DNA of 64,000 nt from an uncultured Gammaproteobacteria bacterium (GTDB lineage: Bacteria > Patescibacteriota > Microgenomatia > UBA8517): assembly GCA_964587425.1 (NCBI GenBank), contig CAZPLB010000003.1, positions 60,763-124,762 of the forward strand. Reading direction: 5' to 3'. Within the stretch, counting starts at the first letter, position 1; every line of letters begins with the position of its first letter. The position numbers and the translations under genes are program-made. Below the pieces are notes generated by a model, which saw only the letters and a list, made by a program, of their open reading frames with translations, was not told the origin of the DNA and ran no database searches. Shown piece by piece: positions 1,910 to 51,919 of this stretch.

Positions 1910-1927
1910 GGTGTAGAATAATTTGAT

Positions 1928-3397: not shown

Positions 3398-3406
3398 TGC
3401 CGGTAC

Positions 3407-3435: not shown

Positions 3436-3444
3436 AACTTTATT

Positions 3445-3714: not shown

Positions 3715-3717
3715 CAA

Positions 3718-4665: not shown

Positions 4666-4686
4666 ACCAAGTATTATAGTTAATTA

Positions 4687-5452: not shown

Positions 5453-5516
5453 ACAGCTATCTTACAACAAAACCGTCCCCTTGACACCTCCTGTAAACTA
5501 AGTTCTACTTAGACCT

Positions 5517-8107: not shown

Positions 8108-8172
8108 GGATTATATTGGAATTTGCAATTAAATGCAAACGTGTTAGTGGAAGATCGATGCCGCAAAGGATG

Positions 8173-8988: not shown

Positions 8989-9017
8989 CGCGAGTATTAT
9001 ATCTAAAAATTAACTCC

Positions 9018-9046
9018 TTGACACACTACGTTAAAAAATATATTAA
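9018..9046 (+). promoter_or_regulatory. Candidate sigma70-like promoter of the dcd-dut-thyX operon (TTGACA-17-TATTAA)
   Basis: TTGACA 9018-9023, 17-nt spacer, TATTAA 9041-9046, start codon at 9056 (near-leaderless). Confidence 0.35.
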
Positions 9047-9055
9047 ATATAGTGC

Positions 9056-9754: not shown

Positions 9755-10194
9755 AATTAAAAACAAAAAGGATAGACAAATCTTTAGAGCTTCCAAAATA
9801 TGAAAAAGGAGCAGCCTGTTTCGACTTTGTTTGTCGTGAAGACGCTACCATTAAACCAAAAGAAATAAAACTAGTTCCATCAAACTCAGTCATTAAGGTG
9901 CCTGTTGGATACTCAATTTTAATTTTTTCAAGAAGCAGCACCCCTTTGAGGAAAGGCTTGATGTTGGCTAATGGAGTTGGAGTGTTGGATTCTTTTTATT
10001 GTGGTGATAAAGATGAAATAATGCTCGAGTTTATGAATATTTCAAATAAAATTGTGGAAATAAAAAGGGGAGAAAAACTTGCTCAGGGAATGTTAATTAA
10101 GCATGAAACAGTAGAATGGGAAGAGGTTGAAAAAATGGAAGATAAAGGTCGCGGAGGATATATTACTGATTTAAACATAAAAAATAAAAAATGA
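9751..10194 (+). CDS. dut: dUTP diphosphatase (trimeric dUTPase)
   Basis: 147 aa; motifs 'RSS', 'GVLDSFYCG' (dUTPase motif III, GxxDxDYRG-like), C-terminal 'RGGYIT' (motif V, RGxxGFGS-like). Confidence 0.85.
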   Translation: MKLKTKRIDKSLELPKYEKGAACFDFVCREDATIKPKEIKLVPSNSVIKVPVGYSILIFSRSSTPLRKGLMLANGVGVLDSFYCGDKDEIMLEFMNISNKIVEIKRGEKLAQGMLIKHETVEWEEVEKMEDKGRGGYITDLNIKNKK

Positions 10195-35506: not shown

Positions 35507-36674
35507 TAAAAACCTACTTGTGATCTCAATTATTGCTGTTGTTAACGCTCTTGGCTATGGAATTATTATTCCAATTCTGTATTCGTACTCTCAAAAGTTT
35601 GGTCTTTCTGACTTTCAAAATGGACTCCTCTTTGCCTCATTTTCCTTGTGTCAATTCATATCAACACCAGTTATTGGAAGACTATCTGATAAATATGGAA
35701 GAAGACCTCTCTTAATTATCTCACTCCTTGGAACAGTTGGTTCGTTTTTGATGATGGCCTTTGCACCGAGTGCTATATTTCTATTTTTAGCCCGTGCCCT
35801 TGATGGACTAACTGCAGGCAATATTCCTGTAGCTATGGCAGTAATCTCAGACACCACAAAACCGGAGGACAGAGCAAAAGGGTTCGGTTTAATTGGAGCT
35901 GCTTTCGGTTTTGGCTTCGTAGCAGGCCCTGCAATTTCAGCGCTGACAGTAGGGTTGGGTACAGCTGTGCCATTTCTTATAGCAGCTGCAATCACAATAA
36001 TTGCTGTGATTTTAACAGCTGTGATACTGCCGGAGACTAATAAAAATATGGGTGAAGTAAAACACACCAAAATGTTTGATTTTCCAAAACTGGCAAAAGC
36101 AATTTTTGATGAAAATGTCGGTAAAACACTTCTTGTATCTCTTATTTTTTCAATTGCCTTCGGTTTGCTGATATACGCATATCAGCCATTCTCGGTGAAG
36201 ATATTAGGTTTAGATGCAAGGCACATTGCTCTTAACTTTACAATCTTTGGCATTGTTGGATTAATTGCCCAAGCATTAATTATTCCCAAAACTGTTGGAA
36301 AAATAGAGGACAAAAAGATTCTAGTTGGCGCTTTGATGTTTTCAGTCCTTGCCTTCTTTGGTCTTTTTGTTGCCAGAAGTTATGCTGTTTTCATACTTTT
36401 TTCAATGTTCGTTTCTTTGTCTAACGCATTTGTAAATCCAATCATAGGAACACTTCTCTCAAAAGAAACTGACGAAAAGTCACAAGGGGAAATGATGGGA
36501 GTAAACGCAAGTTATGTAAGTATCGGTACAATTGTTGGACCAATCCTGGGTGGAGCACTGGCAACGCTTTCTATTCCAATGCCTTTTCTAGGAGGAAGTC
36601 TTTTTGCAGTATTGTGTGTAGTTTTTGCATACCAAATCTTCAAGAAGCCTGCAAAAGTAGTTAGTTTGGAGTAA
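35493..36674 (+). CDS. MFS transporter
   Basis: 394 aa from the ATG at 35493 (the longer ORF from 35148 overlaps yvcK and is rejected); 12 TM; MFS motif 'GRLSDKYGRRPLL'. Confidence 0.75.
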   Translation: MFKNNKNLLVISIIAVVNALGYGIIIPILYSYSQKFGLSDFQNGLLFASFSLCQFISTPVIGRLSDKYGRRPLLIISLLGTVGSFLMMAFAPSAIFLFLARALDGLTAGNIPVAMAVISDTTKPEDRAKGFGLIGAAFGFGFVAGPAISALTVGLGTAVPFLIAAAITIIAVILTAVILPETNKNMGEVKHTKMFDFPKLAKAIFDENVGKTLLVSLIFSIAFGLLIYAYQPFSVKILGLDARHIALNFTIFGIVGLIAQALIIPKTVGKIEDKKILVGALMFSVLAFFGLFVARSYAVFILFSMFVSLSNAFVNPIIGTLLSKETDEKSQGEMMGVNASYVSIGTIVGPILGGALATLSIPMPFLGGSLFAVLCVVFAYQIFKKPAKVVSLE

Positions 36675-36688
36675 ACTGCACTTCACTT

Positions 36689-37366
36689 ATGCCGTCTATA
36701 GAGAACTTAGGCCAAAGGTTGCTTGATGCCACCCAAGAGTCATTCAACAAAGGGAGTGTGGCTCCATTTGCCTTGAATAGATTCACCGCAGGAATGATTT
36801 ATTACACCGATGCATCAGATATTTTCAAAGTTGACAGGAAAACAAGAATTGAAACAAAAAAAAGAATAGAAGAGTTGATGAGGGATTATTCTGAAAATAT
36901 ATATTGTCATAGAACACTGGTTGCAGACGGAATACATGTAGTAATCTTCTCTCAGGATTTATTACCAAGACGCATTAACGGTACTCCATTTATTTTGAAC
37001 ATAATTGCCGGAGGAAGTTTTTCAAGCCATGTAAGTGATGACCTCAACGGTTTTGCAAGAATTATTAGTTTTCCCATAGATGAGAATACAGCGAAGTCTG
37101 TTAAATATTTCCTGGATAGAAGTAGTTCACATACATCTGCCACAAAAAGACATTTTCCAGAAGATAAGTGGGAAGGAATGATTGAATCATTAATAGACCT
37201 TCGTCTAGAACTTGAAAAGGCAGGGCTACCGCTATTTCCAAGTCTAAGTAGATCTTCACTCAGAAGTTCGGCAGCCTATTTACCAATGCCATCTGAACAA
37301 AAGGCATATCGGAAATGGTTTTCCATGGAATCAAAGCGTTTGATGGAATGGTTTGATTCAAGATGA
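36689..37366 (+). CDS. Hypothetical protein
   Basis: 225-aa ORF with no domain recognised. Confidence 0.45.
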   Translation: MPSIENLGQRLLDATQESFNKGSVAPFALNRFTAGMIYYTDASDIFKVDRKTRIETKKRIEELMRDYSENIYCHRTLVADGIHVVIFSQDLLPRRINGTPFILNIIAGGSFSSHVSDDLNGFARIISFPIDENTAKSVKYFLDRSSSHTSATKRHFPEDKWEGMIESLIDLRLELEKAGLPLFPSLSRSSLRSSAAYLPMPSEQKAYRKWFSMESKRLMEWFDSR

Positions 37367-37380
37367 TATTATGAATAGTA

Positions 37381-38487
37381 ATGAAAAGATTTTTGCCAAT
37401 TCTTTTTGTAATAGTTATTATTTCAATAATTGTCTTGAGCTCCAAATCCAATCTTGCCCCAACTCAAACATCTCAACCCCCCACGGCCACAAATTTAACT
37501 GCCAGTAAAATTCCACCAGTAACAGTAATTGCACAGAACCTGAAAATTCCCTGGAGCCTAGTCTTTTTACCAAATGGACAAGAACTTTTCACAACTAGAG
37601 GTGGTGAAGTGAGAAACTTCAAAGGACTAGTTGCAACCGTTCTTGATGTAAAAACTGTTGGAGAAGGGGGATTATTGGGAATTACAGTCCACCCAAACTT
37701 TAATTCAAACCATTTTATATATCTCTACTACACCTATTCTGAAAATGGTGGAAATGTTTTGAATAAAGTTGTCCGTTACAAATTTGAAAATAACCAACTA
37801 ACTGACCCTAAAATAATATTAGATAAAATTCCAGGTTCCAGCAACCACGATGGAGGTAGAATTAAGTTTGGTCCAGATGGAAACCTTTACATTGGAACAG
37901 GAGATGCAGAAGACCCAAGCCAAGCTCAAAACACAAATACTTTGGGTGGAAAAATATTGAGACTAAAAGATGATGGTTCAATTCCCCCAGATAATCCATT
38001 TGGCAATGCAGTCTATTCATATGGCCACAGAAATGTCCAAGGGATAGCCTGGGATGAAAAAGGTCAGTTATGGGCAACCGAACACGGAAGATCTGGAGTC
38101 CAAACAGGTTTTGATGAAGTGAATAAAATATTGAAGGGAGGAAACTTTGGTTGGCCAACAATTCAAGGTGATGAAACCAAAGAAGGTATGATTACTCCAG
38201 TAATTAATTCAGGTGCAGCTACAACCTGGGCACCTTCTGGAATGGCTTACTTCAAGGGTTCATTATTCTTTGCAGGCCTCAGAGGAAGCACACTATATGA
38301 GGCAAAAATAGTAGGAGACAAACTAAATCTTTCAGAACACTTCAAAAATGAGTTTGGAAGATTAAGGGATGTTATCGTAGGACCAGACAACATGTTTTAT
38401 GTTCTAACCAGTAACACAGATGGAAGAGGAACACCAAAATCTGGGGACGACAAAATACTGAAGATTGACCCACTGCAATTAAAATAG
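37381..38487 (+). CDS. Secreted PQQ-type soluble sugar (aldose/sorbosone) dehydrogenase-like beta-propeller
   Basis: 368 aa; N-terminal TM/signal; 'GLLGITVHPNF', 'HDGGRIKFGPDGNLYIGTGD', 'YSYGHRNVQGIAWD..G.LWATEHG' match the YliI/GDH-B family. Confidence 0.7.
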   Translation: MKRFLPILFVIVIISIIVLSSKSNLAPTQTSQPPTATNLTASKIPPVTVIAQNLKIPWSLVFLPNGQELFTTRGGEVRNFKGLVATVLDVKTVGEGGLLGITVHPNFNSNHFIYLYYTYSENGGNVLNKVVRYKFENNQLTDPKIILDKIPGSSNHDGGRIKFGPDGNLYIGTGDAEDPSQAQNTNTLGGKILRLKDDGSIPPDNPFGNAVYSYGHRNVQGIAWDEKGQLWATEHGRSGVQTGFDEVNKILKGGNFGWPTIQGDETKEGMITPVINSGAATTWAPSGMAYFKGSLFFAGLRGSTLYEAKIVGDKLNLSEHFKNEFGRLRDVIVGPDNMFYVLTSNTDGRGTPKSGDDKILKIDPLQLK

Positions 38488-38489
38488 AA

Positions 38490-39464
38490 TCATTTTGCCT
38501 GGTAGTAAACTCCGCGAGTACTTCCTAATTTTCGAATTAACCCGCCCTCCTGCAGCTTCTTTAGGTCATATCGAAGAGTTCTTTCATTCACTTTCATGAA
38601 TCTTCTTTTCAACTGGTCAAAGTTGACTATCTTCTGATCCTTCACAATTCTTAAAAGTTCGGCCCTTCTTGGAAGGAGAAAGTCTGTTGCATCTGTATTT
38701 TGTTTCATCAATACTTGTTCCCGCGCCTCTTTTGCAGTTTCATCAATTGCAGTTAGCATAAATTCAATATAATCAGTCAAATCCTTTTCTGGTTCCTCAA
38801 GTGCCCTGTAGTATTCGCTTCTATGATTATCAAGATACTCTTCAAGTGAAAGAAGCCCTTTCATTCCATACCCGCCTTGTTTTAAAATTCTCTGCAACAG
38901 TAATCTTCCTGTTCTACCATTTCCTTCTTCAAATGGATGAATCTTTTCAAAACTGTAATGAAAAAGTACTGCCTTAATCGGCATTAATCTTTCACGCCCG
39001 GCATTTATATATTTAATGAGTTTTTTCAAAAATAGCGTTACTTGTTTCGGTGGGGGAGGCATATAGATTGCAATTCCAGCACTATTGAAAATTGCCTCCA
39101 TATTGTTTCTCAACTTTCCGCCATCGGGGTGTAGTTCATCAAGTACAATTTTATGAATTTCAAGTATTTCATTTAAACTGACATCCTTCTTTTGATGCCT
39201 ATTTATGAAATTTAATGCTTTCAAAATATTTTGTACTTCAAGTTTTTGCTGCCTTTTGGAAGTCGAATCAAAATCCAAGAGTGTTAGTTCATTTCCCTCA
39301 ATCCTGGCTGAATACAAAGAGCTTCGAAGTGTTGATTGTCGGCGAATATTATTTTCGACTTCAGGTGGAATTGTAATGGAATCAATTACATGCTTTGATG
39401 CTTCAATTGAGGAGAGTAATTCAGAAATTTTGGGAGTGAGCCTATATTTGCCTGGAACCAGCAT
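38490..39464 (-). CDS. fic: Fic-family protein (class II with N-terminal inhibitory helix) plus C-terminal wHTH
   Basis: 324 aa; Fic motif '[12 protein letters not shown]'; inhibitory motif 'SARIEGN' (S/T-x3-E-G/N) upstream. Confidence 0.8.
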
Positions 39465-39523
39465 ATCTAATCTTACCAGATGCTACCAAATTCTGCCAAA
39501 TATTACCAGATACTGTCCTACAG

Positions 39524-40054
39524 TTGACTTCAGAGTACGAAACGAATATTATCTTCATAGTGAAAAGATATTGGTTTTTGATTATTCCAGTTTTAGTTGT
39601 TGCAGCCGTTTTGGTACTAGCCAGAAGCACCCAGAAAAAGGATAATCCAGAAAGTCAGGTAGAAGGGTTGGCAGTGGTTGCAACCAGTACACCTTCAGGA
39701 GAAATAAAAATGGACACACAAACACCATCAAACGAACTAAAAATAGAAGATATTACAGTTGGAACTGGAGATGAAGCAGTCTCAGGAAAGAAAATTACAG
39801 TTAATTACTCAGGAACGCTAACCGATGGAAAGAAATTTGACAGTTCATATGACAGAAATATTCCCTTTAGTTTCACTCTCGGAGCAGGGGAAGTAATCCA
39901 AGGATGGGATCAAGGATTTAATGGTATGAAAGTTGGAGGAAAAAGAAAGTTAACAATACCAGCAAGTTTAGGATATGGTTCAGCAGGAGCTCCTCCAGTT
40001 ATTCCAGGAAACGCAACTTTAATATTTGAAGTAGAACTTCTAAAAGTAGAATAG
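39524..40054 (+). CDS. Membrane-anchored FKBP-type peptidyl-prolyl cis-trans isomerase
   Basis: 176 aa; TM anchor; FKBP domain '[54 protein letters not shown]'. Confidence 0.8.
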
Positions 40055-40231
40055 TTATATGATCGAAGCTCTTTGGAGAATAAATGCCTGGACACCAAAC
40101 GAAGTCTTTTGTGTTGAGGCAGCTGCTTTAGAAGAAGGGTACGAAGTTTACGAAGACGAGGGAGAAGTTCTTATATTAACTTCTGACGGTAAGGATGGCG
40201 CAACTTTTTTCTCTACTGTCTACAAAATGAT

Positions 40232-41428
40232 TCAGGAATCTCTCTTAACTAAGACAAACATTGCAATAGACCCGGCCACTGCAAATATACTTCCAAAGAT
40301 AAATACAGCCGGGTGGCCAATTTTGTCCCACACCTGACCTGCAATTATTGAAGCAAACAAACTCGTTAAACCAACGGTTGCAGAGTACCACCCTATCCCG
40401 CTTGCACGAAGACCAAAAGGAACCAAATCAGAAGCAAGTGCCTTTCCAACTCCTCTGAAGATTCCCTGATAAACTCCATACAAAATAAAAAGAAAGGCAA
40501 TTACAAAATAACTACGTGTTAAGGCAAAACCCAAATAGCTAATGAAAAAGATAAGGAAAGAAAATATCAAAATATTCTTTCTACCAAATTTATCAGACAA
40601 AGCCCCAGATGGATATGAGACAAGTGCCGCAGCTAAATTAAAAAATGCATAAATAAATATTGTTGTTTGTAAACTTATTCCAATATCCCGGGTTGCAAGA
40701 ATTAAAAAAGAACTGCTGGAAGCTCCAATTCCAAAGACAGCAGTAGCAAGTAAATATTTCCAATAACTTTTACCAAATGATCGAAACTTAACATTCAATT
40801 TTGTCTTTTCAATCTGTACACTTTTTCTTTCCCTCACTAAAATTATTGCAGCCACAGAAAGAAGACCTGGAATGAGTGCGATGTAAAAAATATTCCTAAT
40901 CGGAATTTTCAAAGAAAAAAGAAGAAAAATCGCAAACAATGGTCCAAGAAACGCTCCCAAGTTATCTCCAATCCCTTCCAACCCAAATGCCTTTCCTTTA
41001 TCTTTCTCATCAACTGAACCTGCAATCAAAGCATCGCGTGGAGCAGACCTTGTTCCAGTTCCTAGCCTATCTAGAAATCTAATTCCAAGTACCTGCTGCC
41101 AGATAGTTGAAAAACCAATTAAAGGTTTACTTAAAGCGCTAATCAGATACCCAACAATCGCCAGGTATTTCCTTCTTTGTATTTTGTCAGAAATATATCC
41201 GGCAAAACCCTGAACTATGTTTTGTGTAGCATTCGCTATTCCTTCAACTAATCCAACAATTGCTCCATTAGCCCGAAGTGTCTGGGTTAAAAAGATTGGG
41301 AGGATAGGGTAGAGCATCTCGGTCGCAATATCTGCAAACAAAGAAACCGATGCAAGAAGGAAAGTGTCGCGGGTAACTCCCGAGAAATATTTAGATAATT
41401 TTGTAGCCGGCTTTTTCAACAACATCAT
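40232..41428 (-). CDS. MFS transporter
   Basis: 398 aa, 12 TM. The start may lie at a downstream Met because the ORF overlaps the copZ 3' end by 38 nt. Confidence 0.7.
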   Translation of the reverse strand: MMLLKKPATKLSKYFSGVTRDTFLLASVSLFADIATEMLYPILPIFLTQTLRANGAIVGLVEGIANATQNIVQGFAGYISDKIQRRKYLAIVGYLISALSKPLIGFSTIWQQVLGIRFLDRLGTGTRSAPRDALIAGSVDEKDKGKAFGLEGIGDNLGAFLGPLFAIFLLFSLKIPIRNIFYIALIPGLLSVAAIILVRERKSVQIEKTKLNVKFRSFGKSYWKYLLATAVFGIGASSSSFLILATRDIGISLQTTIFIYAFFNLAAALVSYPSGALSDKFGRKNILIFSFLIFFISYLGFALTRSYFVIAFLFILYGVYQGIFRGVGKALASDLVPFGLRASGIGWYSATVGLTSLFASIIAGQVWDKIGHPAVFIFGSIFAVAGSIAMFVLVKRDS

Positions 41429-41585
41429 TAATTACTTTCTCATTTATATTAGCACCTTCAACTTCCAAAGTTTCCTTTGCATAATTGCATTTTGCCTTAA
41501 TCCCGACATCCTCTAAATCGCTTTCAATCATCATCGCGCAGCTTGTGCAATCCATCCCCTGTATTTTATATGTTTTCATATTCAT
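41391..41585 (-). CDS. copZ: Copper chaperone CopZ (HMA domain)
   Basis: 64 aa; 'GMDCTSCAMMIE' metal-binding loop (GMxCxxC). Confidence 0.8.
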   Translation of the reverse strand: MNMKTYKIQGMDCTSCAMMIESDLEDVGIKAKCNYAKETLEVEGANINEKVINDVVEKAGYKII

Positions 41586-42599
41586 CTAATTAATAACAGT
41601 AAACTGGCCGTTGTACATTCCCATACCGCAAGTGTAGGGAAGTTGCCCGATTTCTTTTGGAGTAAATTCAATTTCAGTGCTGCCGTTTTGCGGAAGTATC
41701 TTTGAAACGTTTAATTTTGGAATTAAGAAACTTCTTGCACAGCTTTGTACGTTGTTTGAAATGAGGGTAAGTTTAACTGGAACGCCAACTTTAATAGCCC
41801 CGCTTGGCTTTGAATATCCGCTTGAAGCTACGTCTATTGTTACTTCCTGTTTACCCTCGGAATCTAATTGTGCAGCAGCACCTGCAACCGCAGGTCTGTT
41901 TGTATTCGAAAAAATGGTGCCGATAGCTGTACCGTAGTTTTGTAGAGTATGAGGAGAACCTCTTAATACCTGACCCGAATTCATTGAAAGAACCCCAAGA
42001 ATAAATATCACAAAGGAGGCTGGATAGATGAAAGCCTTTTTCTTCAATAGAGTAAGTGCCGTCACGCCAAGAGTGAAAAATACTGGACTTGTACCCAAGG
42101 TAAAGGCAAACATAAGAAGCGCGCCGTTAAAAGCACTTCCACTTCCAACAGAAAGAACCATCATGGCTTGTGTCACTCCGCATGGAATTAAAACTGTCAT
42201 CGTTCCCAAAATTCCCGGGGTAAAAAATTGAGCCCTTTTGGTTTTATTCTTCATTAATTTATACAGAAACTTTGGCGGTTGAATTACAAAATATCTAAAA
42301 ATTGGATGGAGATTTAAAAGACGTCCTACAGTTCCAAGCATGAAAATACCCACAAAAATCTGAAACCATCCTTGCAGGGCGGGGGAGATAATAAACTTTG
42401 CTCCCAGGTACCCCAAGAGCCCTCCAAGAAGGGTGTAGGCGAGTATTTTAAAAAAGAGAAAAACACTAACGCCAATAAATCTGTCGTTTTTAGTTGCATT
42501 ATTGGTGAGGGATGATGCCAACAACCCCCCCTGCACTGCCATGCAGGAAATCCCACCAGTAGTTAATCCAGTTAGAAAAGCTAGCCAAATTTGATTCAT
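41586..42599 (-). CDS. DsbD_2/CcdA-like membrane domain fused to a C-terminal cupredoxin-like domain
   Basis: 337 aa; TM1 'GGISCMAVQGG' and TM4 'LIPCGVTQAMM' cysteines as in DsbD_2 permeases; C-terminal 'TCGMGMYNGQFTVIN' is paralogous to the 117-aa gene at 42969-43322. Confidence 0.6.
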   Translation of the reverse strand: MNQIWLAFLTGLTTGGISCMAVQGGLLASSLTNNATKNDRFIGVSVFLFFKILAYTLLGGLLGYLGAKFIISPALQGWFQIFVGIFMLGTVGRLLNLHPIFRYFVIQPPKFLYKLMKNKTKRAQFFTPGILGTMTVLIPCGVTQAMMVLSVGSGSAFNGALLMFAFTLGTSPVFFTLGVTALTLLKKKAFIYPASFVIFILGVLSMNSGQVLRGSPHTLQNYGTAIGTIFSNTNRPAVAGAAAQLDSEGKQEVTIDVASSGYSKPSGAIKVGVPVKLTLISNNVQSCARSFLIPKLNVSKILPQNGSTEIEFTPKEIGQLPYTCGMGMYNGQFTVIN

Positions 42600-42610
42600 A
42601 ATTTAAGCTC

Positions 42611-42663
42611 TTGACATTAGGATAAATGTTTATTATAGTGTTGTCAATCCCCCCCTCGGGGAT
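42611..42663 (+). promoter_or_regulatory. csoR promoter (TTGACA-17-TATAGT) with GC-rich operator palindrome ATCCCC-N5-GGGGAT
   Basis: TTGACA 42611-42616, 17-nt spacer, TATAGT 42634-42639. Palindrome 42647-42663 lies between the -10 and the csoR ATG (42697), overlaps a minus-strand TTGACA (42642-42647), and resembles known CsoR operators (GC-rich arms, 5-bp spacer). Confidence 0.5.
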
Positions 42664-42696
42664 AAACAAGTTAGTGATTACATTTAAAAATAAAAT

Positions 42697-42975
42697 ATGC
42701 CAAAAGGAATACCAAGAGACAAATCGTTGCAAAGAACCATAATCCATAGACTTAAGATTGCAGAAGGGCACTTGAAAAAAGTGACGAAAATGACCGAGAA
42801 TGGTGAATACTGCATGGATGTAATTAATCAATCGCTTGCAGTACAAATGGCACTTAAAAAAGTGGATGAATTAATCTTGAAAAATCATTTGCAAACTTGT
42901 GTAAGAGATTCGGTTAAAAAGGGCGGAACTGAAGAAAGTATTGAAGAAATTATTGGAGTAATAGAAAGATGGTAA
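42697..42975 (+). CDS. csoR: Copper-sensing repressor CsoR (CsoR/RcnR family)
   Basis: 92 aa; 'RL.I.EGHL..V' helix and Cu ligands in 'YCMDVINQ...HLQTC' (C-H-C pattern). Confidence 0.75.
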   Translation: MPKGIPRDKSLQRTIIHRLKIAEGHLKKVTKMTENGEYCMDVINQSLAVQMALKKVDELILKNHLQTCVRDSVKKGGTEESIEEIIGVIERW

Positions 42976-43322
42976 TTGAAAAAATAATTGTATCGACTGG
43001 AGGGTTATTGCTAATAGGTTTTATATATTGGTTCTTTTTTGGAAAAAAAGAAAAAGCAGTTGAAGGAAACACTCAAATCATAGTTGAAGGCGGCTATAAG
43101 CCGTCAATAATAAAAATAAAGAAGGGTGTAAAAACAACCCTGACTTTTACTCGCCGCGACCCGAATTCGTGTTTGGAAGAAGTAGTAATACCGGCATTTA
43201 AAGTGAAAAAGTATCTGCCAATCAATACACCTGTCAATATAGAAATTATAGGTAAAGAAACTGGAGAGTTTGGGTTTAGATGCGGGATGGGGATGTTTAG
43301 CGGGAAAATAATCATTGATTAA
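42969..43322 (+). CDS. Membrane-anchored cupredoxin-like protein (Cupredoxin_1-like)
   Basis: 117 aa; TM anchor; 'IIVEGGYKPSIIKIKKGV...NSC...FRCGMGMFSGKIIID'. Confidence 0.6.
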   Translation: MVIEKIIVSTGGLLLIGFIYWFFFGKKEKAVEGNTQIIVEGGYKPSIIKIKKGVKTTLTFTRRDPNSCLEEVVIPAFKVKKYLPINTPVNIEIIGKETGEFGFRCGMGMFSGKIIID

Positions 43323-43350
43323 TTTAATGATTATTAACTTTTAAAAAAAT

Positions 43351-45501
43351 ATGGCAAAAAAATCTTTTCCAATCATAGGAATGCACTGCGCGAGCTGTGC
43401 AAGGTTAATTGAAAAAAAATTAACAAAGACAAACGGTGTAGTTTCTGCAAATGTTAACTATGGAAGTGAAACTGCAACAGTTGAATACGATGATTCAGTA
43501 ATTGCTGAAGAGGAACTAGTAGAGGCAGTAAAAGAAACGGGATACCAGTTAATTCATTCAAGTGGAGAACACGACAAAAGTGCAGATGTGATTAAAGAGG
43601 AAGCAAAGAAAAAAGAACTTGAGGATTTGAGATTGAAAGTAGTAGTTTCAGGGATATTATCAGTAATAATTTTTATTGGAAGTTTCCCTGAATGGTTCAC
43701 TTTTGTTCCCAGTCTCTTAAGTGATCCATTAACGCTTCTTGTCCTATCTATTCCTGTTCAGTTTTGGGCAGGGCTCTCATTTTTTAAAGCAACAATTTCA
43801 GGACTAAAAAACAGAACTGCTAGTATGGATACCCTCATAGCGATAGGTACTTCAGCTGCATTTTTCTATTCAGTGCTTTCTATTTTTGGTTTCACCAAAG
43901 GAACATATTTTGACACAGCTGCAGTAATTATCGCTCTCATTCTTCTGGGAAGGTACTTAGAAGCGAGAGCGAAACTTCATACATCTGATGCCATTAAAAA
44001 ATTGATTGGACTTCAAGCAAAAACTGCACGCGTGATTCGAAACGGGCAAGATTTAGATATACCAATTGAAGAAGTAAGAGAAGGAGATGAAATTAGAGTA
44101 AGGCCAGGAGAAAAAATAGCAGTAGATGGGGTAATCATTGAAGGAAATACTTCAATAGATGAATCTATGGTAACAGGTGAATCAATCCCAGTCGAAAAAA
44201 TGAAAGGAGACACAGTAATTGGCAGCACCATGAATAAAAATGGAACATTAATTTTCAAAGCAACAAAAGTAGGAGCTGACACAATGCTCTCCCAAATTGT
44301 GAAGCTTGTTGAGTCTGCTCAATCGTCCCGTGCTCCCATACAGCGCCTTGCTGATGCTGTTTCTTCCTACTTTGTTCCAGTTGTCCTGATGCTTGCAGTT
44401 GCAACTTTTGTAATTTGGTTTGACTTCAATACTCCAATAAATGCATTCGTTAACATGGTTGCAGTTCTAATAATAGCTTGCCCATGTGCCATGGGACTGG
44501 CCACTCCTACTGCAATAATGGTTGGGACGGGAAAAGGAGCAGAGAAAGGAATACTGGTTAAAGATGCACAAAGTTTGGAAGTTGCAAGTAGAGTCAAATC
44601 TATTATTTTTGACAAAACAGGAACTCTCACAGAAGGAAAGCCAAAAGTAACAGACATTACAAATTTGGAGGTATTGAAAATTGCAGCCAGTTTGGAAGTT
44701 GGATCAGAACACCCGCTTGCTGAAGCTATCGTTAATTATGCAAAAGAAAAAGGTGTAAATATGGAAAAGGTTGATGAATTTCAATCAATTACAGGTCAAG
44801 GGGTTGAAGGAAAAATAAACGGCAAAAAGTATTTCTTCGGGAAGCACACTGAAAAAAGTGAAGACGTGAAGGAGATGGAAAAAAAGGGGAAAACAGTAAT
44901 AACGCTTCTTGAAGAAAATCAGATGTTAGGAACAATAGCTGTAGCTGATACACCAAAGGATGGAGTAGGCGAGGTTATACAAAAACTTCAGGAAAGTAAA
45001 ATCAATGTTTGGATGATAACTGGGGATAATAGGGCAACTGCAGAAGGAATTGCCAAAACAATTGGAATTAAAAATATAATGGCAGAGGTTCTTCCAGGTG
45101 AAAAGGCAGAGAAGGTAAATGAATTAAAGTCGATGGGAATTAAAGTAGCGTTCGTTGGGGACGGCGTCAATGATGCACCGGCATTGGCAGCTGCAGATGT
45201 TGGAATAGCAATGGGAACTGGCACTGATGTAGCAATAGAGGCAGCAGGCATTACACTTCTAAATAAAGATATTAGATCGGTTCTTTCAGCATTTAAATTA
45301 AGTAAAAGCACCTTAGCAGTTATAAGGCAAAATCTCTTTTGGGCATTTGGCTACAACATTATTTTAATCCCAGTTGCAGCAGGTATTCTTTACCCTTTCA
45401 CAGGATGGCTACTAAATCCTGCTATAGCAGCCGGAGCCATGGCACTGTCATCATTATCAGTAGTTACAAATTCATTAAGGCTAAAAAGTTTGAAGATATA
45501 G
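43351..45501 (+). CDS. copA: Copper-translocating P1B-type ATPase
   Basis: 716 aa; N-terminal HMA 'GMHCASCA', TM 'CPC' ([13 protein letters not shown]), 'DKTGTLT', '[10 protein letters not shown]'. Confidence 0.9.
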
Positions 45502-45538
45502 ACTTGACATTCAATAAGCAAAGCTTCAATATTCAAAT

Positions 45539-46168
45539 ATGTCAGGAGAATTTCTAGTTTTCTCAAAGGACGGAAAAGATCTTCATATAACTGCACATCA
45601 TGCAAACGGCGTCACAAATAAGAGGTTCATGCATGAAGAAGAAAAAGAAGCAATAAGAAGAACCTTAGGATTACCAGAGAAGGATGGGGTCTTCATGAGT
45701 ATTCCAGATAGAGATTACCTCAAAGTAATGACCACTCAAGAAGAGAGGGACGGATGGCTAGAAGCCTGGGGAGGATTAACTCCAACAGAAAAATTAGTTT
45801 ACGCCACCAATCACTACAGAATTAATTCATATCGTGAGGTAGCAGAAAGTCTTGGCTTCACTGACATAGAAGAAATACGAATTGGAATATGCGGTTCAGA
45901 GAACGTGGTGATAACTCACCGTTCGGAACAATTTCAAGGAATACTCAAGGAAGTCGAGGCAAAGATGACTATTGAATTGATTGAAAAAGGAATTTTTCCG
46001 GAATTAGATCTACCTTGGAAATTGAGAAAGAGGATGGTTAATATAGAAAGCGCTGTTATGGATTCAGTCATAGAAAACCTAGATGAACCGTCAGTTAACT
46101 CGGCCGAATGGAGCGAATGGTACAATAAAACACAGGAAACGTTTTATAACTACCTTCTCAGCCAATAA
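45539..46168 (+). CDS. Hypothetical protein
   Basis: 209-aa ORF with no domain recognised. Confidence 0.45.
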   Translation: MSGEFLVFSKDGKDLHITAHHANGVTNKRFMHEEEKEAIRRTLGLPEKDGVFMSIPDRDYLKVMTTQEERDGWLEAWGGLTPTEKLVYATNHYRINSYREVAESLGFTDIEEIRIGICGSENVVITHRSEQFQGILKEVEAKMTIELIEKGIFPELDLPWKLRKRMVNIESAVMDSVIENLDEPSVNSAEWSEWYNKTQETFYNYLLSQ

Positions 46169-46171
46169 TTT

Positions 46172-46477
46172 ATGAAAACAAAGGGTCTAATTCAAGCACT
46201 AGGAGTGGCACTATACTGCACAATAGTAGGCACATTTATGTTTAATGTAGGAAAAATCCTAGGAAATGATAATAACCAAAATTTTTTTGGACCAATTGCA
46301 TTCCTTCTTCTTTTTAGCACCTCAGCCTTAATTTGTTCACTTATAGTTTTCTACAAGCCTTACTTGTTATTCTTTTCAAACAAGAAAAAAGAAGCAATTA
46401 ATTTAGTAGTTTCAACAGCTTCTTGGCTCTTCATCTTTTTTCTAGTGTTCATCTCGCTTGCAATTATCCTCAGATAA
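46172..46477 (+). CDS. Small hypothetical membrane protein
   Basis: 101 aa, 3 predicted TM helices. Confidence 0.4.
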   Translation: MKTKGLIQALGVALYCTIVGTFMFNVGKILGNDNNQNFFGPIAFLLLFSTSALICSLIVFYKPYLLFFSNKKKEAINLVVSTASWLFIFFLVFISLAIILR

Positions 46478-46494
46478 AGTGGTATATTAAAACC

Positions 46495-46725
46495 ATGTCA
46501 GATACTACAATGCTTCAATCAATAGTAAGTTCAATTGCTTTAATGCGCCAAGAGATGAAAGATGGATTCAAAAAGGTGAATGAAAAGATAGATAAAGTCG
46601 ATAAAAGAGTGGACAACCTAGGAAAATCACTCGCATATCTTGAAGATGATGCACCAACTCGTGGTGAGCACACAAAACTTGAAAAACGGGTTACCAAGTT
46701 AGAACAAATCACAGCTCCAGTATAA
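46495..46725 (+). CDS. Small coiled-coil hypothetical protein
   Basis: 76 aa from the ATG at 46495; heptad-like 'KKVNEKIDKVDKRVDNLGKSLAYLEDD'. Confidence 0.35.
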   Translation: MSDTTMLQSIVSSIALMRQEMKDGFKKVNEKIDKVDKRVDNLGKSLAYLEDDAPTRGEHTKLEKRVTKLEQITAPV

Positions 46726-46752
46726 GATTACTTCCAGTTTCAAAAATAATCT

Positions 46753-47571
46753 TTATTTATCTTCTTTGTTTTCTTCAGTAGGTTCGTTACATGCTTTTAT
46801 GAGTGAATATCCCAAAGAAGTTAATTGCACTGAATTCTCGGATAGACTTCTACTTCGTCGTTCTGTCTCTAAATAACGGGAAACTTCTCTTAAAATTCTA
46901 TTTTCACCATCGTAAGTAGTAGTTACCACAGAAGTTCCACCAGTACCGAAATTCAAGAGTCCAGTACCAAAACCGATAGACGTCGCTGTTGCATAATGTA
47001 TAGGTGGATTTGTTATGAGTCTCAAACGATATAAATTGTCTACAACAGTCTGATAGTCACTGTTGTTTTCCTTAAGTTTGCTTATCACAATTCGAAGAGA
47101 AATTGAATAATGAGCCGGATCTGCTCGTCCTTTCTCTTTCATACCGGAATGTATCATGTCTAGAACCAATGCTTCAGAGGGGGTGAGTTCTTTCAATATG
47201 GAAACATAAATTGTTTTCGCGCTAGAATTGTTAGCTGCTGCATTAGCCAAGAGATTAGCCCACATCTTTTGCATTGTTTCATTTTCTTGTAGTGAAGCTT
47301 GTTCGATAAATGGAACTTCAAAAGCAATTGGTAATTTAGCCGAAAGTTCTGGTAAATTATATTTTTCTGAAATTTCATTTGCCTCTTTTGTTATCTTGAT
47401 AAAGTTTTTCCAACGGGCAAATTTTGCATTATCACTTAGTATGCCCATTGTTTCCTTAACAAAACCTGGAACTACTGAATTAAAAAATTTACCAACCATA
47501 CGCATCTCTGATTGTTCTATTTCCATTTCACCGCTACCCAGATTGTTGGGAAGAGATAGCTTTGTTCTCAT
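46753..47571 (-). CDS. Abi-alpha-like (DUF4393) putative abortive-infection protein
   Basis: 272 aa; 'MQKMWANLLANAAANNSSAK' matches the hallmark W-A-N-L-L-A-N-A region of Abi-alpha family proteins. Confidence 0.5.
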   Translation of the reverse strand: MRTKLSLPNNLGSGEMEIEQSEMRMVGKFFNSVVPGFVKETMGILSDNAKFARWKNFIKITKEANEISEKYNLPELSAKLPIAFEVPFIEQASLQENETMQKMWANLLANAAANNSSAKTIYVSILKELTPSEALVLDMIHSGMKEKGRADPAHYSISLRIVISKLKENNSDYQTVVDNLYRLRLITNPPIHYATATSIGFGTGLLNFGTGGTSVVTTTYDGENRILREVSRYLETERRSRSLSENSVQLTSLGYSLIKACNEPTEENKEDK

Positions 47572-47652
47572 GTATACGATTATATACTTTTTGGAACATC
47601 TTATAGAGCAACTCTGATTGACCTGTAATCTTTTCTGTCCTAAAATACAATC

Positions 47653-48018
47653 ATGATTAAGTCCATTTCATCACTTTTATTCTTTTCAAAAAATCTAAAG
47701 AGAACTTCTGAATTTTACAAGGCACTTGGCTTCAAGCCAGAGATAAAAGATAGTATGGTGAGTTTTTATGTGAACTGGTTTTCGGTCAACTTCATTGACA
47801 AGAAACACTCTGAATTTAAATCGGGATTTGAGGGTGATCTTGGCCGAGGCATGTTTATTTACATGAAAGTTGATGATGTAGACAAATTCTACAAATTCGT
47901 TCTCAAAAAGGGGATTAAGCCAGCGAGTATTCCGCGCGATTGGCCATGGAGAAACAGAGAATTTGTAGTCAAAGACCCAGATGGCTACAGACTTGTATTT
48001 TTTAACAAAATCAAATAA
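47653..48018 (+). CDS. VOC (glyoxalase/bleomycin-resistance/dioxygenase) family protein, paralog 1
   Basis: 121 aa; 'LLFFSKNLKRTSEFYKALGFK' beta-alpha-beta start typical of VOC. Confidence 0.6.
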   Translation: MIKSISSLLFFSKNLKRTSEFYKALGFKPEIKDSMVSFYVNWFSVNFIDKKHSEFKSGFEGDLGRGMFIYMKVDDVDKFYKFVLKKGIKPASIPRDWPWRNREFVVKDPDGYRLVFFNKIK

Positions 48019-48027
48019 CATATTCCC

Positions 48028-48423
48028 ATGACCAAAAACCCAGTAGTACATTTTGAAATGCCGGCAAAAGACAAGAAAAGAGCTTCAAAGTTTTACACAA
48101 ATGCATTTAGTTGGAATATGGTAATGACTGGCCCCGAAATGGGGAACTATTTAATTGCCCAAACTGCAGAAACTGATGAAAACAATATGGTTAAAACTCC
48201 AGGAACTATTAACGGTGGATTTTTTGAATATCAAGACAAACCAGGATTTACCCAGCCACACATAGTTATATCAGTAGACAATCTTGAAGAAAGCATGAAA
48301 AAAGTTGTTGATGAAGGTGGAACAATAGATGGTAAGCCAATGGATATTCAAACCATAGGCAAGTATGTAACTGCTATTGATCCAGAAGGAAATAGAGTAG
48401 GGTTGCTTCAGCCAGGAAAATAA
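48028..48423 (+). CDS. VOC family protein, paralog 2
   Basis: 131 aa; 'VVHFEMPAKDKKRASKFYTNAFSWNM'. Confidence 0.6.
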   Translation: MTKNPVVHFEMPAKDKKRASKFYTNAFSWNMVMTGPEMGNYLIAQTAETDENNMVKTPGTINGGFFEYQDKPGFTQPHIVISVDNLEESMKKVVDEGGTIDGKPMDIQTIGKYVTAIDPEGNRVGLLQPGK

Positions 48424-48424
48424 T

Positions 48425-48796
48425 ATGTTAAATTTTAATTCAGTATTGCTGTCTTCAGAAAACTACAAAGTTCTCGCTGACTTCTACAAAAAAGTATTCC
48501 AAAAGGAACCAGAAATGGCAGAAGAAGGCTATACAGGTTTTTTAGTTGGCAGTTGTTTCTTAAGTATTGGTGCTCATGACAAAATTCATGGCAAAAACAC
48601 CAACCCAGACAGAATCCTCCTTAATTTTGAAACAGATGATGTCAAAGGAGAATTTGAAAGAATCAAAGCTTTGGGAGCAGAAGTTGTAAAAGAACCTTAT
48701 TCAATGGGGGAGAACAATGATTTTTGGATAGCAACATTCGCTGATCCAGACAAAAACTACTTCCAGTTAATAACTCCTTGGAAGGCAGAGAAATAA
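48425..48796 (+). CDS. VOC family protein, paralog 3
   Basis: 123 aa; 'VLLSSENYKVLADFYKKVF'. Confidence 0.55.
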   Translation: MLNFNSVLLSSENYKVLADFYKKVFQKEPEMAEEGYTGFLVGSCFLSIGAHDKIHGKNTNPDRILLNFETDDVKGEFERIKALGAEVVKEPYSMGENNDFWIATFADPDKNYFQLITPWKAEK

Positions 48797-48803
48797 TTTC
48801 CAA

Positions 48804-49181
48804 ATGAGAGAAGATTGTCGTAAATCGTCCACAGAACCCCTAAGCTCGGAAGACAGATTAGTACAACTTGTAACTGAACTAGGACTCAAAGAGACTGAAG
48901 CAATGCGAGATTTAAGATCAAGGATTGAAGCCTCAGATATCAAAGCTAGTCTGGGAACATATCAAGATTTGGCAGGTGTGGAGATTGATAAATACAGTGA
49001 AATACCCCAAAGGGAGAATGCACAAATTGGATTAATTGTTATGTCTGCAGTGATTTGCCGTAAACTTGGAGCAGAGGAAGGATACATTGATGCCCTAGAT
49101 GCAGCTATTAATTATGCAGAAGGTATTGGAAGCGAAGACATTGCAAAAGAGTTAAGAGACTTAATCTCCAAAACAAGATAA
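48804..49181 (+). CDS. Hypothetical protein
   Basis: 125-aa ORF with no domain recognised. Confidence 0.4.
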   Translation: MREDCRKSSTEPLSSEDRLVQLVTELGLKETEAMRDLRSRIEASDIKASLGTYQDLAGVEIDKYSEIPQRENAQIGLIVMSAVICRKLGAEEGYIDALDAAINYAEGIGSEDIAKELRDLISKTR

Positions 49182-49390
49182 GCAAAAATACTCTAATTAG
49201 TGTCAGCACAAGCTCCCGTGGAGTTGGAAGGTCGACTTGCCTTCATCGTAATGCTTGCGCATCCCGCAGTAGAGCCTTTCTGCATTTCAACCCCACAGCA
49301 ACTTGCAACTCTGAAGATATTATATATCACTGATGTCAAGGATATGATTCTCCGTTTTTATTTAGGTTAGAAAATGAAGAGAGAGACTTG

Positions 49391-49795
49391 TTAGATACTA
49401 CCCACAATTTTCTCCAAGAACTCGCGATCTTCAGTCACTGCCATTTGTTCGATTGCACCATCAATCTCAAACCAATCATATAGTTCGTCTGCTTTTTGGT
49501 GGAAATCTGGCTTGTCTGAAGTCATTAAAAACATGTGAATATCTTTCAAAACAGGTGTACCATCTCTTTCTGTTGCTTGTTTGGTATATACACCAAGTTT
49601 CTTGACAATTTTTAATTCTGTTAGTCCAGTTTCTTCAGTTACTTCCCTCATTGCAGCTTGTTCAAAAGTTTCACCGTCTTCTACATGGCCTTTTGGAAAC
49701 CCCAAACCTTTTATGTGTGTGTAAATAGTCAACAATATTTTTTTGTTTGGATTAGTCTTAACTACTATTCCTCCTGCTGATATTACCTTTTTCAT
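49391..49795 (-). CDS. NUDIX hydrolase
   Basis: Start taken at the internal Met (49795). Nudix box 'GFPKGHVEDGETFEQAAMREVTEETGL' (GX5EX7REUXEEXGU). Confidence 0.7.
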   Translation of the reverse strand: MKKVISAGGIVVKTNPNKKILLTIYTHIKGLGFPKGHVEDGETFEQAAMREVTEETGLTELKIVKKLGVYTKQATERDGTPVLKDIHMFLMTSDKPDFHQKADELYDWFEIDGAIEQMAVTEDREFLEKIVGSI

Positions 49796-49825
49796 TTGTT
49801 TGTAATTATAATACACTAAAGCGAA

Positions 49826-50338
49826 ATGACTAACCCAACACAAACAATTGACTGGAAAGGGGATAAGTTTGTAGTTGAATGGATAAAAACTAATTCTCTT
49901 AAAGGTATGACTCCAATTAATCAGGTGTATGGTGTTTGCTTTAATGACAAAGACGAGATCTTGATTGCCAGAAAAGAAGGCAGAGGATACTGGATAGTTC
50001 CAGGAGGACATCCAGAGAAGAATGAAACTACAGAGGAAACTTTAGAACGTGAAATGATTGAGGAAGCTGATGTAAAGATTAAAAACATCAAAGTTCTTGG
50101 AGCACAAAAAGTATATCCAGAAGGAAAACCAAAAGAATATTTTTACCAAGTAAGATGTATTTGTGAAGTTGATAAAATTCTACCTCAAACCCCAGACCCA
50201 GATGATAATAAAAACTGGGAGAGAAAGTTTGTACCAACAGATAAAATAACTAAATTTGTTAAATGGGGGGTAATTGGAAATGCAATGTTCAAAGATGCAA
50301 TTAAACTTCATGATTTATCTCTGGAAGTGTTAAAATAG
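49826..50338 (+). CDS. NUDIX hydrolase (second, divergent)
   Basis: 170 aa; Nudix box 'GGHPEKNETTEETLEREMIEEADV'. Confidence 0.7.
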   Translation: MTNPTQTIDWKGDKFVVEWIKTNSLKGMTPINQVYGVCFNDKDEILIARKEGRGYWIVPGGHPEKNETTEETLEREMIEEADVKIKNIKVLGAQKVYPEGKPKEYFYQVRCICEVDKILPQTPDPDDNKNWERKFVPTDKITKFVKWGVIGNAMFKDAIKLHDLSLEVLK

Positions 50339-50342
50339 CTTC

Positions 50343-50927
50343 ATGGATGTTTTTGAATACAAAATAAAATTGGCAGAAGAAATAATAGAGGAACGAGAGT
50401 TTGTGAATAATAAATATCTATCTTTAAAGGTGGAAACTATAAAACAGTTTCGTGATCTAATTATTCAATTCGTTATAATATCTTCAGGTATAATTGGCTT
50501 TACCTTACCGGTTTTTGACAAAACACAACTAGTAAAAAATAAAACATTTTTAATTGGTGGTCTAGCGGAATTATTAATCATTGTTTTATTTGGATTTTAC
50601 TATTTAAAAAATATTCTTGAAAAGGAAAATGATTCGCTAGAAAAAGACAGTAAAGCATTTAACGAATATCTCGATAAAAAAAGAGATGCTAAAATAGAAT
50701 TTATAAAAAGTTTAAATGGCCACACCAAATCTGATGCATTTAAAATTTACGAGGAAGAAAACCACCAAGCACTTATCGTATTAAATAACAAAGTAAAAAC
50801 CCGACCTTCACAAAAAGATTATGTTCTAGACTTGGTATTTATTGCTTTCTTTCTCGGCCTCGCTTTAATTGTTTTATCTCTAACAGATTTTAATTTTTAT
50901 TTTCTATTAAAAATATTTAATCTATGA
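50343..50927 (+). CDS. Hypothetical membrane protein
   Basis: 194 aa, ~3 TM helices; no domain recognised. Confidence 0.45.
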   Translation: MDVFEYKIKLAEEIIEEREFVNNKYLSLKVETIKQFRDLIIQFVIISSGIIGFTLPVFDKTQLVKNKTFLIGGLAELLIIVLFGFYYLKNILEKENDSLEKDSKAFNEYLDKKRDAKIEFIKSLNGHTKSDAFKIYEEENHQALIVLNNKVKTRPSQKDYVLDLVFIAFFLGLALIVLSLTDFNFYFLLKIFNL

Positions 50928-51919
50928 ATCTGAAAGTAGGTATAGTAGGTCTCCCAAATGTAGGAAAGTCCACTCTCTTTAATGCACTTCTAAAAAGACA
51001 AGTTGCATATGTAGCAAACTTTCCATTTGCTACAGTTGAACCAAATGTTGGCATTGTTCCAGTTCCTGACAATCGTCTTCAAAAACTATCTGAAGCAGTT
51101 AAAACTTCTGAAAATACACCGGATCTTCCTCCAGAAGTTCCAGCTACTGTAGAGTTTGTAGATATTGCAGGAATAATTAAAGGAGCAAGTAAGGGTGAAG
51201 GATTGGGAAATAAATTTCTGAGCCACATTAGAGAAGTTGATGCCATCTGCTATGTTCTTCGTGGTTTTAGTGACCCAGACATTATTAAAGAGGGAAGTAC
51301 TGACCCAAAGTCTGATTTTGAAATATTAAAAACAGAACTTGACCTAGCTGACTTTGAAACAGTTGAAAAACACAAAACAAAAAAGAACCAAACACAAGAA
51401 GAACTACCATTATTTAGTAAAAAACCATTCCTTGTTGTAATTAATGTTGATGAAAATGATTTAAAAGATGCAACCAAAATCGAAGTAGAGTATGCTTCAA
51501 AACTTGGAATTCACACCCACCAGGTTATAGCAATCTCTGCCAAAATTGAATCCGAACTCTCAGATCTCACCGAAGGTGATGGAAAAAAATATCTTGAAGA
51601 CCTTGGGGTAAAAGAATCAGGGTTAGAGCGGCTCATCAAAAAAGCATTTGAAACTCTTGGATTAATTACATTTCTAACAGCGGGCGTTAAAGAAGTACGT
51701 GCATGGACCATTCCTGTAGGAATAGATGCTCAAAATGCAGCTGGTGTTATTCACACTGACTTCATTAAAAAATTCATAAAAGCAGATGTTGTTGACTATA
51801 AAGATTTTGTTGAACTGGAAGGGTGGAAAAATTGTCGTGAAAAAGGCAAAGTAAGAAGTGAAGGTCGTGACTATATTATGAAAGACGGAGATGTTGTAGA
51901 GTTCAAGATTGGGAGCTGA
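50924..51919 (+). CDS. ychF: Ribosome-binding ATPase YchF/Ola1 (short form)
   Basis: 331 aa; '[18 protein letters not shown]', '[13 protein letters not shown]', C-terminal TGS domain. Confidence 0.85.

Follow-up and report, generated by a model that had tools for sequence, protein, structure and literature searches.

A putative stand-alone Abi_alpha defence gene on a 946-bp indel in the variable region upstream of ychF in a Woesebacteria-like genome

Can a single small gene of an uncultured, genome-reduced bacterium be recognized as an abortive infection (Abi) determinant, and does it belong with the small genes that flank it? These questions are raised by a locus in contig CAZPLB010000003.1 (assembly GCA_964587425.1), of which a stretch of 64,000 nucleotides (positions 60,763 to 124,762 of the forward strand) was analyzed; this whole stretch is referred to below as the window, and all coordinates are counted from its first letter. 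An earlier reading made from the letters of the window (hereafter the sequence-only reading) had pointed to a minus-strand gene for a 272-amino acid (aa) protein with the motif WANLLANA, which was taken as a hallmark of Abi-alpha proteins, and to three small orphan genes next to it. The joint explanation that we favour, and consider probable, is that this is a genuine Abi_alpha gene carried on an indel of approximately 0.95 kb bounded by an inverted repeat, and that its product would be a stand-alone cytoplasmic anti-phage protein.

Identification of the Abi_alpha gene

The gene in question is the following.

46753–47571, minus strand: Abi_alpha gene encoding a soluble protein of 272 aa, with a match to Pfam PF14337/DUF4393

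The profile searches proposed in the sequence-only reading bore out its family assignment. The Abi_alpha profile PF14337 of Pfam scored 87.7 bits against the 272-aa protein (gathering cutoff 29; E 1.4e-24), the alignment spanning practically the full profile (positions 6–196 of 196) and residues 60–261 of the protein, with WANLLANA at residues 104–111. Three PADLOC models of the candidate system PDC-S47 matched as well (3.5e-11, 5e-10 and 3.4e-08, no curated PADLOC cutoff being applied), the best of them with 41.1 bits over residues 41–263. Among the PHROGs, phrog_2232 was matched with an E value of 8.2e-11 (42.9 bits).

The motif block A-S-L-E/Q-x5-Q-x2-W-A-N-L-L-A-N occupies residues 92–111 (ASLQENETMQKMWANLLANA), and the upstream D-x5-R-W motif is present as D47 and R53-W54. 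In an alignment of 34 diverse Abi_alpha members, D47, R53 and L137 are invariant, while E90, S93, Q101, W104, L108, L126 and C261 are at least 90% conserved; the window protein retains all of these invariant and near-invariant residues. Kyte-Doolittle analysis revealed no hydrophobic segment. The start codon agrees with those of the homologues, the GC content of the gene is 0.36 and its tetranucleotide z-scores lie within ±1.5. Judged by these sequence criteria, the reading frame at 46753–47571(-) encodes a true member of the Abi_alpha (PF14337/DUF4393) family. The family is already known, and the window gene adds one member to it, not a new type of system.

Only three relatives were returned by a word-indexed search (42, 35 and 34% identity). 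An exhaustive profile search recovered 5858 representative clusters at E ≤ 1e-3, 2650 at ≤ 1e-10 and 40 at ≤ 1e-30; about 25 of them align over the full length and the majority only to positions ~20–190. PF14337 is carried by all 43 of the 43 word-index matches, and the family matches are mostly 200–280 aa long. The nearest relatives of the protein are all encoded on contigs resembling those of the candidate phyla radiation (CPR). An open reading frame (ORF) of phage phiNM1 (1402–2334), guessed to be a Firmicutes member of DUF4393, turned out on comparison to be unrelated.

Predicted architecture and proposed mode of action

A structure model built from a 4-sequence alignment (mean pLDDT 64, pTM 0.55) was too weak for use and was superseded by one built from 39 sequences (mean pLDDT 81.2, pTM 0.75). 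In the latter the N-terminal domain is composed of helices 20–33, 37–44, 48–70, 82–92 and 98–112 and holds the conserved polar positions D47, R53-W54, E90, S93, Q101 and W104-ANLLANA. Helices 120–128, 131–146, 159–168 and 173–182 follow, then a short strand, a Gly/Thr-rich loop of low confidence (195–214) and a long helix (222–245); strand 247–250 and helix 252–261 complete the C-terminal domain. This domain (residues ~120–190 plus 247–261) is predicted to form a TubR/MarR-like winged helix whose wing carries a clade-specific insertion, consisting of the loop 195–214 and the helix 222–245. Two domains can thus be told apart in the modelled protein, a helical one at the N terminus and a winged helix at the C terminus. 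Nothing in it could be recognized as a transmembrane segment, nor as the fold of a nuclease, a kinase or any other enzyme. Foldseek comparison of the model with the PDB and BFVD revealed no significant full-length analogue, sequence and profile searches of the PDB gave nothing significant (TubR appeared only at E 0.07), and none of the Pfam helix-turn-helix (HTH) families scored above threshold.

By homology to AbiAlpha (EF2833) of Enterococcus faecalis, the founder of the family, the window protein would act alone, in the cytoplasm, against phages. On infection it would derail the phage cycle and kill or prematurely lyse the infected cell, and the death or early lysis of that cell would protect its clonal neighbours. 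As a weak guess prompted by the model, the winged helix might sense phage nucleic acid or a phage protein, and the conserved N-terminal helical domain might relay the signal through protein-protein interaction or oligomerization and not through catalysis. The predicted architecture gives candidate residues (D47, R53, W104 and N179/R182 of the recognition helix) for a family of unexplained mechanism.

The same fold lends itself to another interpretation, namely that the protein is a winged-helix DNA-binding regulator, or an accessory sensor or specificity module of other defence systems, present here as an orphaned regulator. The TubR/MarR-like C-terminal half fits such a role, as does the lack of a visible enzyme or pore fold, and some homologues are embedded in operons of other systems. 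In contig L003 the Abi_alpha gene lies between hsdM and hsdS/hsdR of a type I restriction-modification (R-M) operon, and in L095 it is found within an operon of DUF499, methylase and SNF2 helicase genes, with AbiEi adjoining. However, no R-M or other partner system adjoins the gene in the window or in contigs L002, L090 and L097, a plain repressor role would leave the conserved N-terminal domain (D47, R53, WANLLAN) unexplained, and a plasmid carrying only the founder gene confers the complete Abi phenotype (PMC6356687). We therefore regard an orphaned regulator, the main rival reading, as unlikely and prefer the stand-alone anti-phage protein.

The remaining homologue contexts are diverse. In L002 an HNH endonuclease gene stands beside the homologue, and the contig also encodes an FKBP protein 67% identical to that of the window; in L094 the homologue occurs near RHS, HTH, Toprim and integrase genes. 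No conserved neighbour was found among the contexts compared (L002, L003, L090, L094, L095 and L097).

Two further features of L003 were observed. The operon (1872–8646) has the order hsdM, Abi_alpha, a gene for a 386-aa protein of unknown function, hsdS and hsdR. Its Abi_alpha gene contains 10 in-frame TGA codons; when these are read as Gly, conserved positions, including G254, are restored, which points to genetic code 25 (Gracilibacteria, Absconditabacteria).

Presence and absence of the gene at orthologous sites

A comparison of locus variability, likewise proposed in the sequence-only reading, revealed no conserved housekeeping synteny and showed the Abi gene to be missing from the orthologous site of L089, a 3.6-kb Logan contig of a close relative. 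The features involved are listed below.

45539–46168, plus strand: orf209, encoding an acidic, soluble, lineage-specific protein of 209 aa without a family match
46172–46477, plus strand: orf101TM, encoding a protein of 101 aa with three hydrophobic segments (Kyte-Doolittle)
46495–46725, plus strand: orf76cc, encoding a coiled-coil-type protein of 76 aa; its ATG start lies inside the ORF 46423–46725
46707–47652, no strand: indel segment of 946 bp that the window has and the orthologous site of L089 lacks
46707–46728, plus strand: left arm of an inverted repeat, AATCACAGCTCCAGTATAAGAT, which provides orf76cc with its final codons and its stop
47598–47619, minus strand: right arm of that repeat, reading AATCAGAGTTGCTCTATAAGAT on the minus strand, located in the spacer between the Abi gene and VOC1
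47618–47646, plus strand: promoter-like site TTGACC-17-TAAAAT, a consensus match only, reading into VOC1

Contig L089 carries the same series of genes, CopA-orf209-orf101TM-orf76cc-VOC1, without the Abi gene. Amino acid identity between the two loci is 96% for the CopA C-terminus, 72% for orf209, 67% for orf101TM, 66% for orf76cc, 93% for VOC1 and 62% for VOC2. Similarity ends at 46706 and resumes at the ATG of VOC1 (47653), and the 946 bp in between contain the Abi gene with its flanks, the final ~7 codons and the stop of orf76cc, and no other gene. In L089 the stop codon of orf76cc overlaps the start of VOC1 by 4 nt (ATGA). Because a deletion would have to recreate this overlap, an insertion in the lineage of the window appears more parsimonious on sequence grounds. 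L089 in turn possesses a DUF4232 gene on the opposite strand between orf101TM and orf76cc, and genes for GrpB and a 158-aa protein between VOC1 and VOC2; the same reasoning suggests that these are lineage-specific insertions in L089, so that the neighbourhood as a whole would seem to gather small gene insertions. The two loci form a clean natural presence/absence pair, in which the Abi gene behaves as an independent single-gene cassette.

The segment is bounded by an imperfect inverted repeat of 22 nt (17 of 22 positions complementary), the left arm of which starts the segment while the right arm sits 33 nt inside its other end. Among 1000 shuffles of both junction regions, 2 attained a complementarity of 17/22, and among 1000 equally spaced real pairs from the window none did; this statistic was computed after the repeat had been noticed and is suggestive only. 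The repeat motif AATCANAGNTNCNNTATAAGAT has no further copy in the window or the fetched loci, and no comparable repeat flanks the Abi homologue of L002. The arms might mark the ends of a non-autonomous cassette as terminal repeats, or they might be the scar of a recombination event. The outer margin of the right arm is where the promoter-like site at 47618–47646 begins, and VOC1 in the window is without translational coupling to orf76cc.

An inserted gene may also be a non-functional hitchhiker, left over from an earlier transfer and without a role at present. No mobile-element genes lie nearby, no sequence resembling a Shine-Dalgarno site was seen upstream of the Abi start (by eye, without a formal scan), and the host lineage is known for gene loss. 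Yet streamlined CPR genomes of this kind seldom keep dead genes, and the ORF is intact and of full length, with all the family-conserved residues in place, a start conserved with its homologues and a composition that matches the host. We consider a dead remnant very unlikely, and a functional gene remains our reading of the segment.

The three small upstream genes

The three small plus-strand orphans described in the sequence-only reading (a soluble protein, a protein with three transmembrane helices and a coiled-coil protein) were found as ORFs, and hydropathy agrees with that description, orf209 and orf76cc being devoid of hydrophobic segments in the Kyte-Doolittle analysis. None of them has a convincing family match in Pfam, NCBIfam, PADLOC or PHROGs; for orf76cc there are weak coiled-coil-type matches only, XhlA/hemolysin-like proteins among them (E~0.01). 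The sole other homologue of orf209 is P0010 (72% identical), on L089.

Ratios of nonsynonymous to synonymous substitution (dN/dS) between the window and L089 are ~0.14 for orf209, ~0.13 for orf101TM and ~0.09 for orf76cc, with 0.02 for VOC1, and are approximate since dS is saturated (1.3–3). These low values indicate that the three small genes are under purifying selection. With 66–72% aa identity between positions 45539–46725 of the window and 215–1994 of L089, they diverge far faster than the CopA C-terminus (96%) and VOC1 (93%) in the same pair of genomes.

Since L089 keeps all three without the Abi gene, orf209, orf101TM and orf76cc are fast-evolving, lineage-specific genes of the CopA-VOC neighbourhood and not Abi partners; the orphans that flank the Abi gene belong to its surroundings, not to its system. 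One multi-gene system made up of the Abi gene and the three small genes, for instance a sensor with a membrane effector, was rejected as extremely improbable: the four genes do lie close together, the premature lysis caused by the founder could suggest a membrane partner and orf76cc has its XhlA-type matches, but matches at E~0.01 are typical coiled-coil noise, no relative of the small genes occurs on any of the Abi-homologue contigs compared (L002, L003, L090, L094, L095 and L097), and the Abi gene is convergent with the small genes, which are served by a promoter-like site of their own at 45504–45533.

The variable stretch upstream of ychF

The locus lies within a larger variable region, which also contains a second putative defence gene.

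36675–50923, no strand: variable accessory stretch between an MFS gene (35148–36674) and ychF (50924–51919)
38490–39464, minus strand: gene for a Fic and winged-helix protein (SoFic); Pfam Fic 8.4e-21, PADLOC SoFic 3.8e-54 (182 bits)

The stretch contains genes for GSDH, SoFic, FKBP and an MFS protein, the copper island, the orphans, the Abi gene, three VOC genes, orf125, two NUDIX genes and orf194TM. The copper island, correctly placed directly upstream of orf209 by the sequence-only reading, is composed of CsoR, two cupredoxin proteins, a DsbD_2-cupredoxin fusion and the P-type ATPase CopA (HMA, E1-E2 and HAD domains). Downstream of the Abi gene there are three VOC/glyoxalase paralogues, a gene for a 125-aa protein without an assigned family, two NUDIX genes and a gene for a low-GC protein with three transmembrane segments. 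Fic, VOC and NUDIX genes had all been described as adjacent; the VOC and NUDIX genes do follow, whereas SoFic lies 7.3 kb upstream of the Abi gene, past the copper island. In L013 a Fic protein 62% identical to that of the window is encoded between ychF and ssb, and this different site implies that the Fic gene also moves around.

The order downstream of ychF (rpsF-ssb-rpsR-S41 protease-...-prfB-EamA-HisS-like) is kept in L009–L012, L015 and L019. Contigs L009 and L010 represent the closest relatives; over the 10 kb that precede ychF in them, no window ORF of 90 aa or more finds a match. L015 and L020, which are more distantly related, have a homologue of the MFS gene 35148–36674 directly upstream of ychF, which suggests that the interval 36.7–50.9 kb of the window is accessory. 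In L009 (Candidatus Woesebacteria CP066693), positions 67–10059 encode GajA (1e-211), GajB (6e-131), a small terminase subunit and a PrimPol-AAA_25 protein, and a gene for a 539-aa serine recombinase abuts or overlaps the start of ychF; by its gene content, this region looks like an integrated element carrying Gabija. In L090 and L091 the order is purD, a 165-aa ORF, an Abi_alpha gene (894–1652 and 827–1585, respectively; 35% identical to that of the window) and then, 23 bp further on the same strand, ychF, whose product is 62–65% identical to the window YchF. The suggestion of a defence or accessory hotspot is thus supported by SoFic in the same stretch, by the Gabija element at ychF in L009 and by Abi_alpha at ychF in L090/L091, and the region upstream of ychF can be flagged as a variable site of defence genes and mobile elements in Woesebacteria.

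A classical prophage or integrative island was considered and rejected, given that there is no tRNA, Rfam match, integrase gene in the stretch or compositional anomaly; ARAGORN found no tRNA in the 64-kb window, and no Rfam family reached its gathering threshold there. A metagenome scan anchored on VOC1 returned nothing closer than 48% and no synteny. A bolder proposal treats the Abi gene, with the inverted repeat at its boundaries, as a small non-autonomous defence cassette that a recombinase or transposase mobilizes in trans. Defence genes of Woesebacteria would then land repeatedly at the site upstream of ychF, as with Abi_alpha in the window and L090, Gabija and a serine recombinase in L009, and SoFic in the window and L013; the CPR clade with the wing insertion could act by a non-lytic, DNA-sensing route unlike that of the Enterococcus founder. 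Taken as a whole, we see this as speculation that is unlikely to hold.

Several observations were made on the other genes of the stretch. The three tandem VOC paralogues (47653–48796) encode proteins of 121, 131 and 123 aa, with spacers of 9 nt and 1 nt. The two NUDIX genes (49391–50338) are divergent and 27 bp apart; for the one on the minus strand a long 206-aa ORF overlaps its neighbour, and in L001 this gene was called at 134 aa. Both NUDIX proteins weakly match the PADLOC candidate PDC-S07 (7.7e-08 and 1.4e-10). The gene orf194TM (50343–50927), directly upstream of and overlapping ychF, encodes a protein that has three hydrophobic segments and matches no family. Its GC content (0.267) is the minimum of the window, with 0.195 at third codon positions (GC3), and 49.5–51.5 kb is a tetranucleotide outlier (z 2.2).

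Host lineage and defence in CPR genomes

Among species-representative genomes, the best matches to the window YchF come from Candidatus Woesebacteria (77%; CP066693, a complete chromosome of 916 kb), followed by matches of 72, 65 and 62%. To judge from these identities, the host is a Woesebacteria-like (Microgenomates) CPR bacterium without a close sequenced species representative. The exact window proteins were found once each in a large protein collection, in a 148-kb contig of one NCBI assembly and in one Logan contig.

The sequence-only reading had guessed at a minimal, episymbiont-like genome, in which a defence gene would be notable. The guess about the genome was sound, given its Woesebacteria-like YchF, but "notable" was an overstatement: defence systems in CPR genomes have already been catalogued and are dense, per Mb, in Microgenomatia and Paceibacteria (PMC12259885), and in the light of that catalogue an Abi gene in a minimal genome is expected, not surprising. 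Its presence in a CPR genome overturns no current view. The gene widens the range of a defence family, founded on experiment but still without a mechanistic explanation, to include an uncultured CPR lineage with a reduced genome. New here are the presence/absence pair, the cassette bounded by an inverted repeat, the variable site adjacent to ychF that several Woesebacteria-like genomes have in common and the predicted two-domain architecture.

Evidence weighing against a stand-alone anti-phage gene

From the likeness to the founder we infer a phage-defence function for the window gene, and several points count against this reading or against its details. The presence/absence evidence comes from one 3.6-kb contig, L089, and the statistic on the repeat is a post hoc one. 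Prophage and integrase genes are absent from the variable stretch and tRNA genes from the whole window, and neither GC content nor tetranucleotide composition is deviant in the Abi region or hints at a recent foreign origin. The context of the homologues is not uniformly defensive, as in L097 the gene stands beside leuD/leuB/leuA. Likeness to the characterized proteins of Firmicutes prophages is seen at the profile level only, and a tblastn search of 50,697 phage records returned matches to three Vibrio elements only (27% identity). The sensor/adaptor mechanism is drawn from the predicted fold alone, the mechanism of AbiAlpha is unknown even for its founder (PMC6356687; again according to a 2025 preprint), and no experiment exists for any CPR member of Abi_alpha.

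The matches in phage records (H1–H3) are to hypothetical proteins, with 27% identity over 60% of the query. They lie in PQ189387.1 (6650–7162) and two similar records, which are named "Vibrio phage ..._PE002", are 8.6–10.9 kb long and come from Vibrio cyclitrophicus; these are small elements, possibly satellites. A scan of viral contigs using the Abi alignment gave no match.

Comparison with known systems

The winged helices of TubR and MarR resemble the window protein in fold only, with 13–20% identity and no significant sequence match, and TubR/MarR proteins have no equivalent of its conserved N-terminal domain. PDC-S47, a single-gene candidate system of PADLOC-DB v2 matched by the protein, is itself a candidate only, and our literature search found no paper describing it.

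Another comparison is offered by Belisama (DUF2806), a validated anti-phage cassette of Vibrio chromosomal integrons that was described as related to Abi-alpha (10.1101/2024.07.02.601686). DUF2806 (PF10987) and TIGR03899 share with residues 85–140 of the window protein a segment of ~55 residues with the pattern ASLE..LQ..WANLLAN, a similarity that for both stays below threshold. The DUF2806 profile of Pfam scores 21.8 bits against the protein, below its cutoff of 24.5, and aligns with residues 88–140 only, so that DUF2806/Belisama is, by sequence, best described as a sister family of which the window protein is not a member.

The characterized counterpart is EF2833 (AbiAlpha, 272 aa) of prophage 6 of E. 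faecalis V583, the founder of PF14337/DUF4393 (PMC6356687). Whether EF2833 is present on prophage 6 or alone on a plasmid, adsorption of phage Idefix is normal; the infected cells die, lysis occurs ~10 min earlier, plating falls below detection and the single gene is sufficient (PMC6356687). As to the cause, its authors offered only speculation on holin timing or membrane energetics (PMC6356687). Unlike EF2833, a moron of a Firmicute prophage, the window gene is chromosomal, belongs to a CPR genome and has no prophage genes around it; it resembles the founder at the profile level only and encodes a protein with a clade-specific wing insertion. Like EF2833, it falls in the same Pfam family, encodes a single soluble protein of 272 aa with no recognizable catalytic domain, and is accessory and patchy in its distribution.

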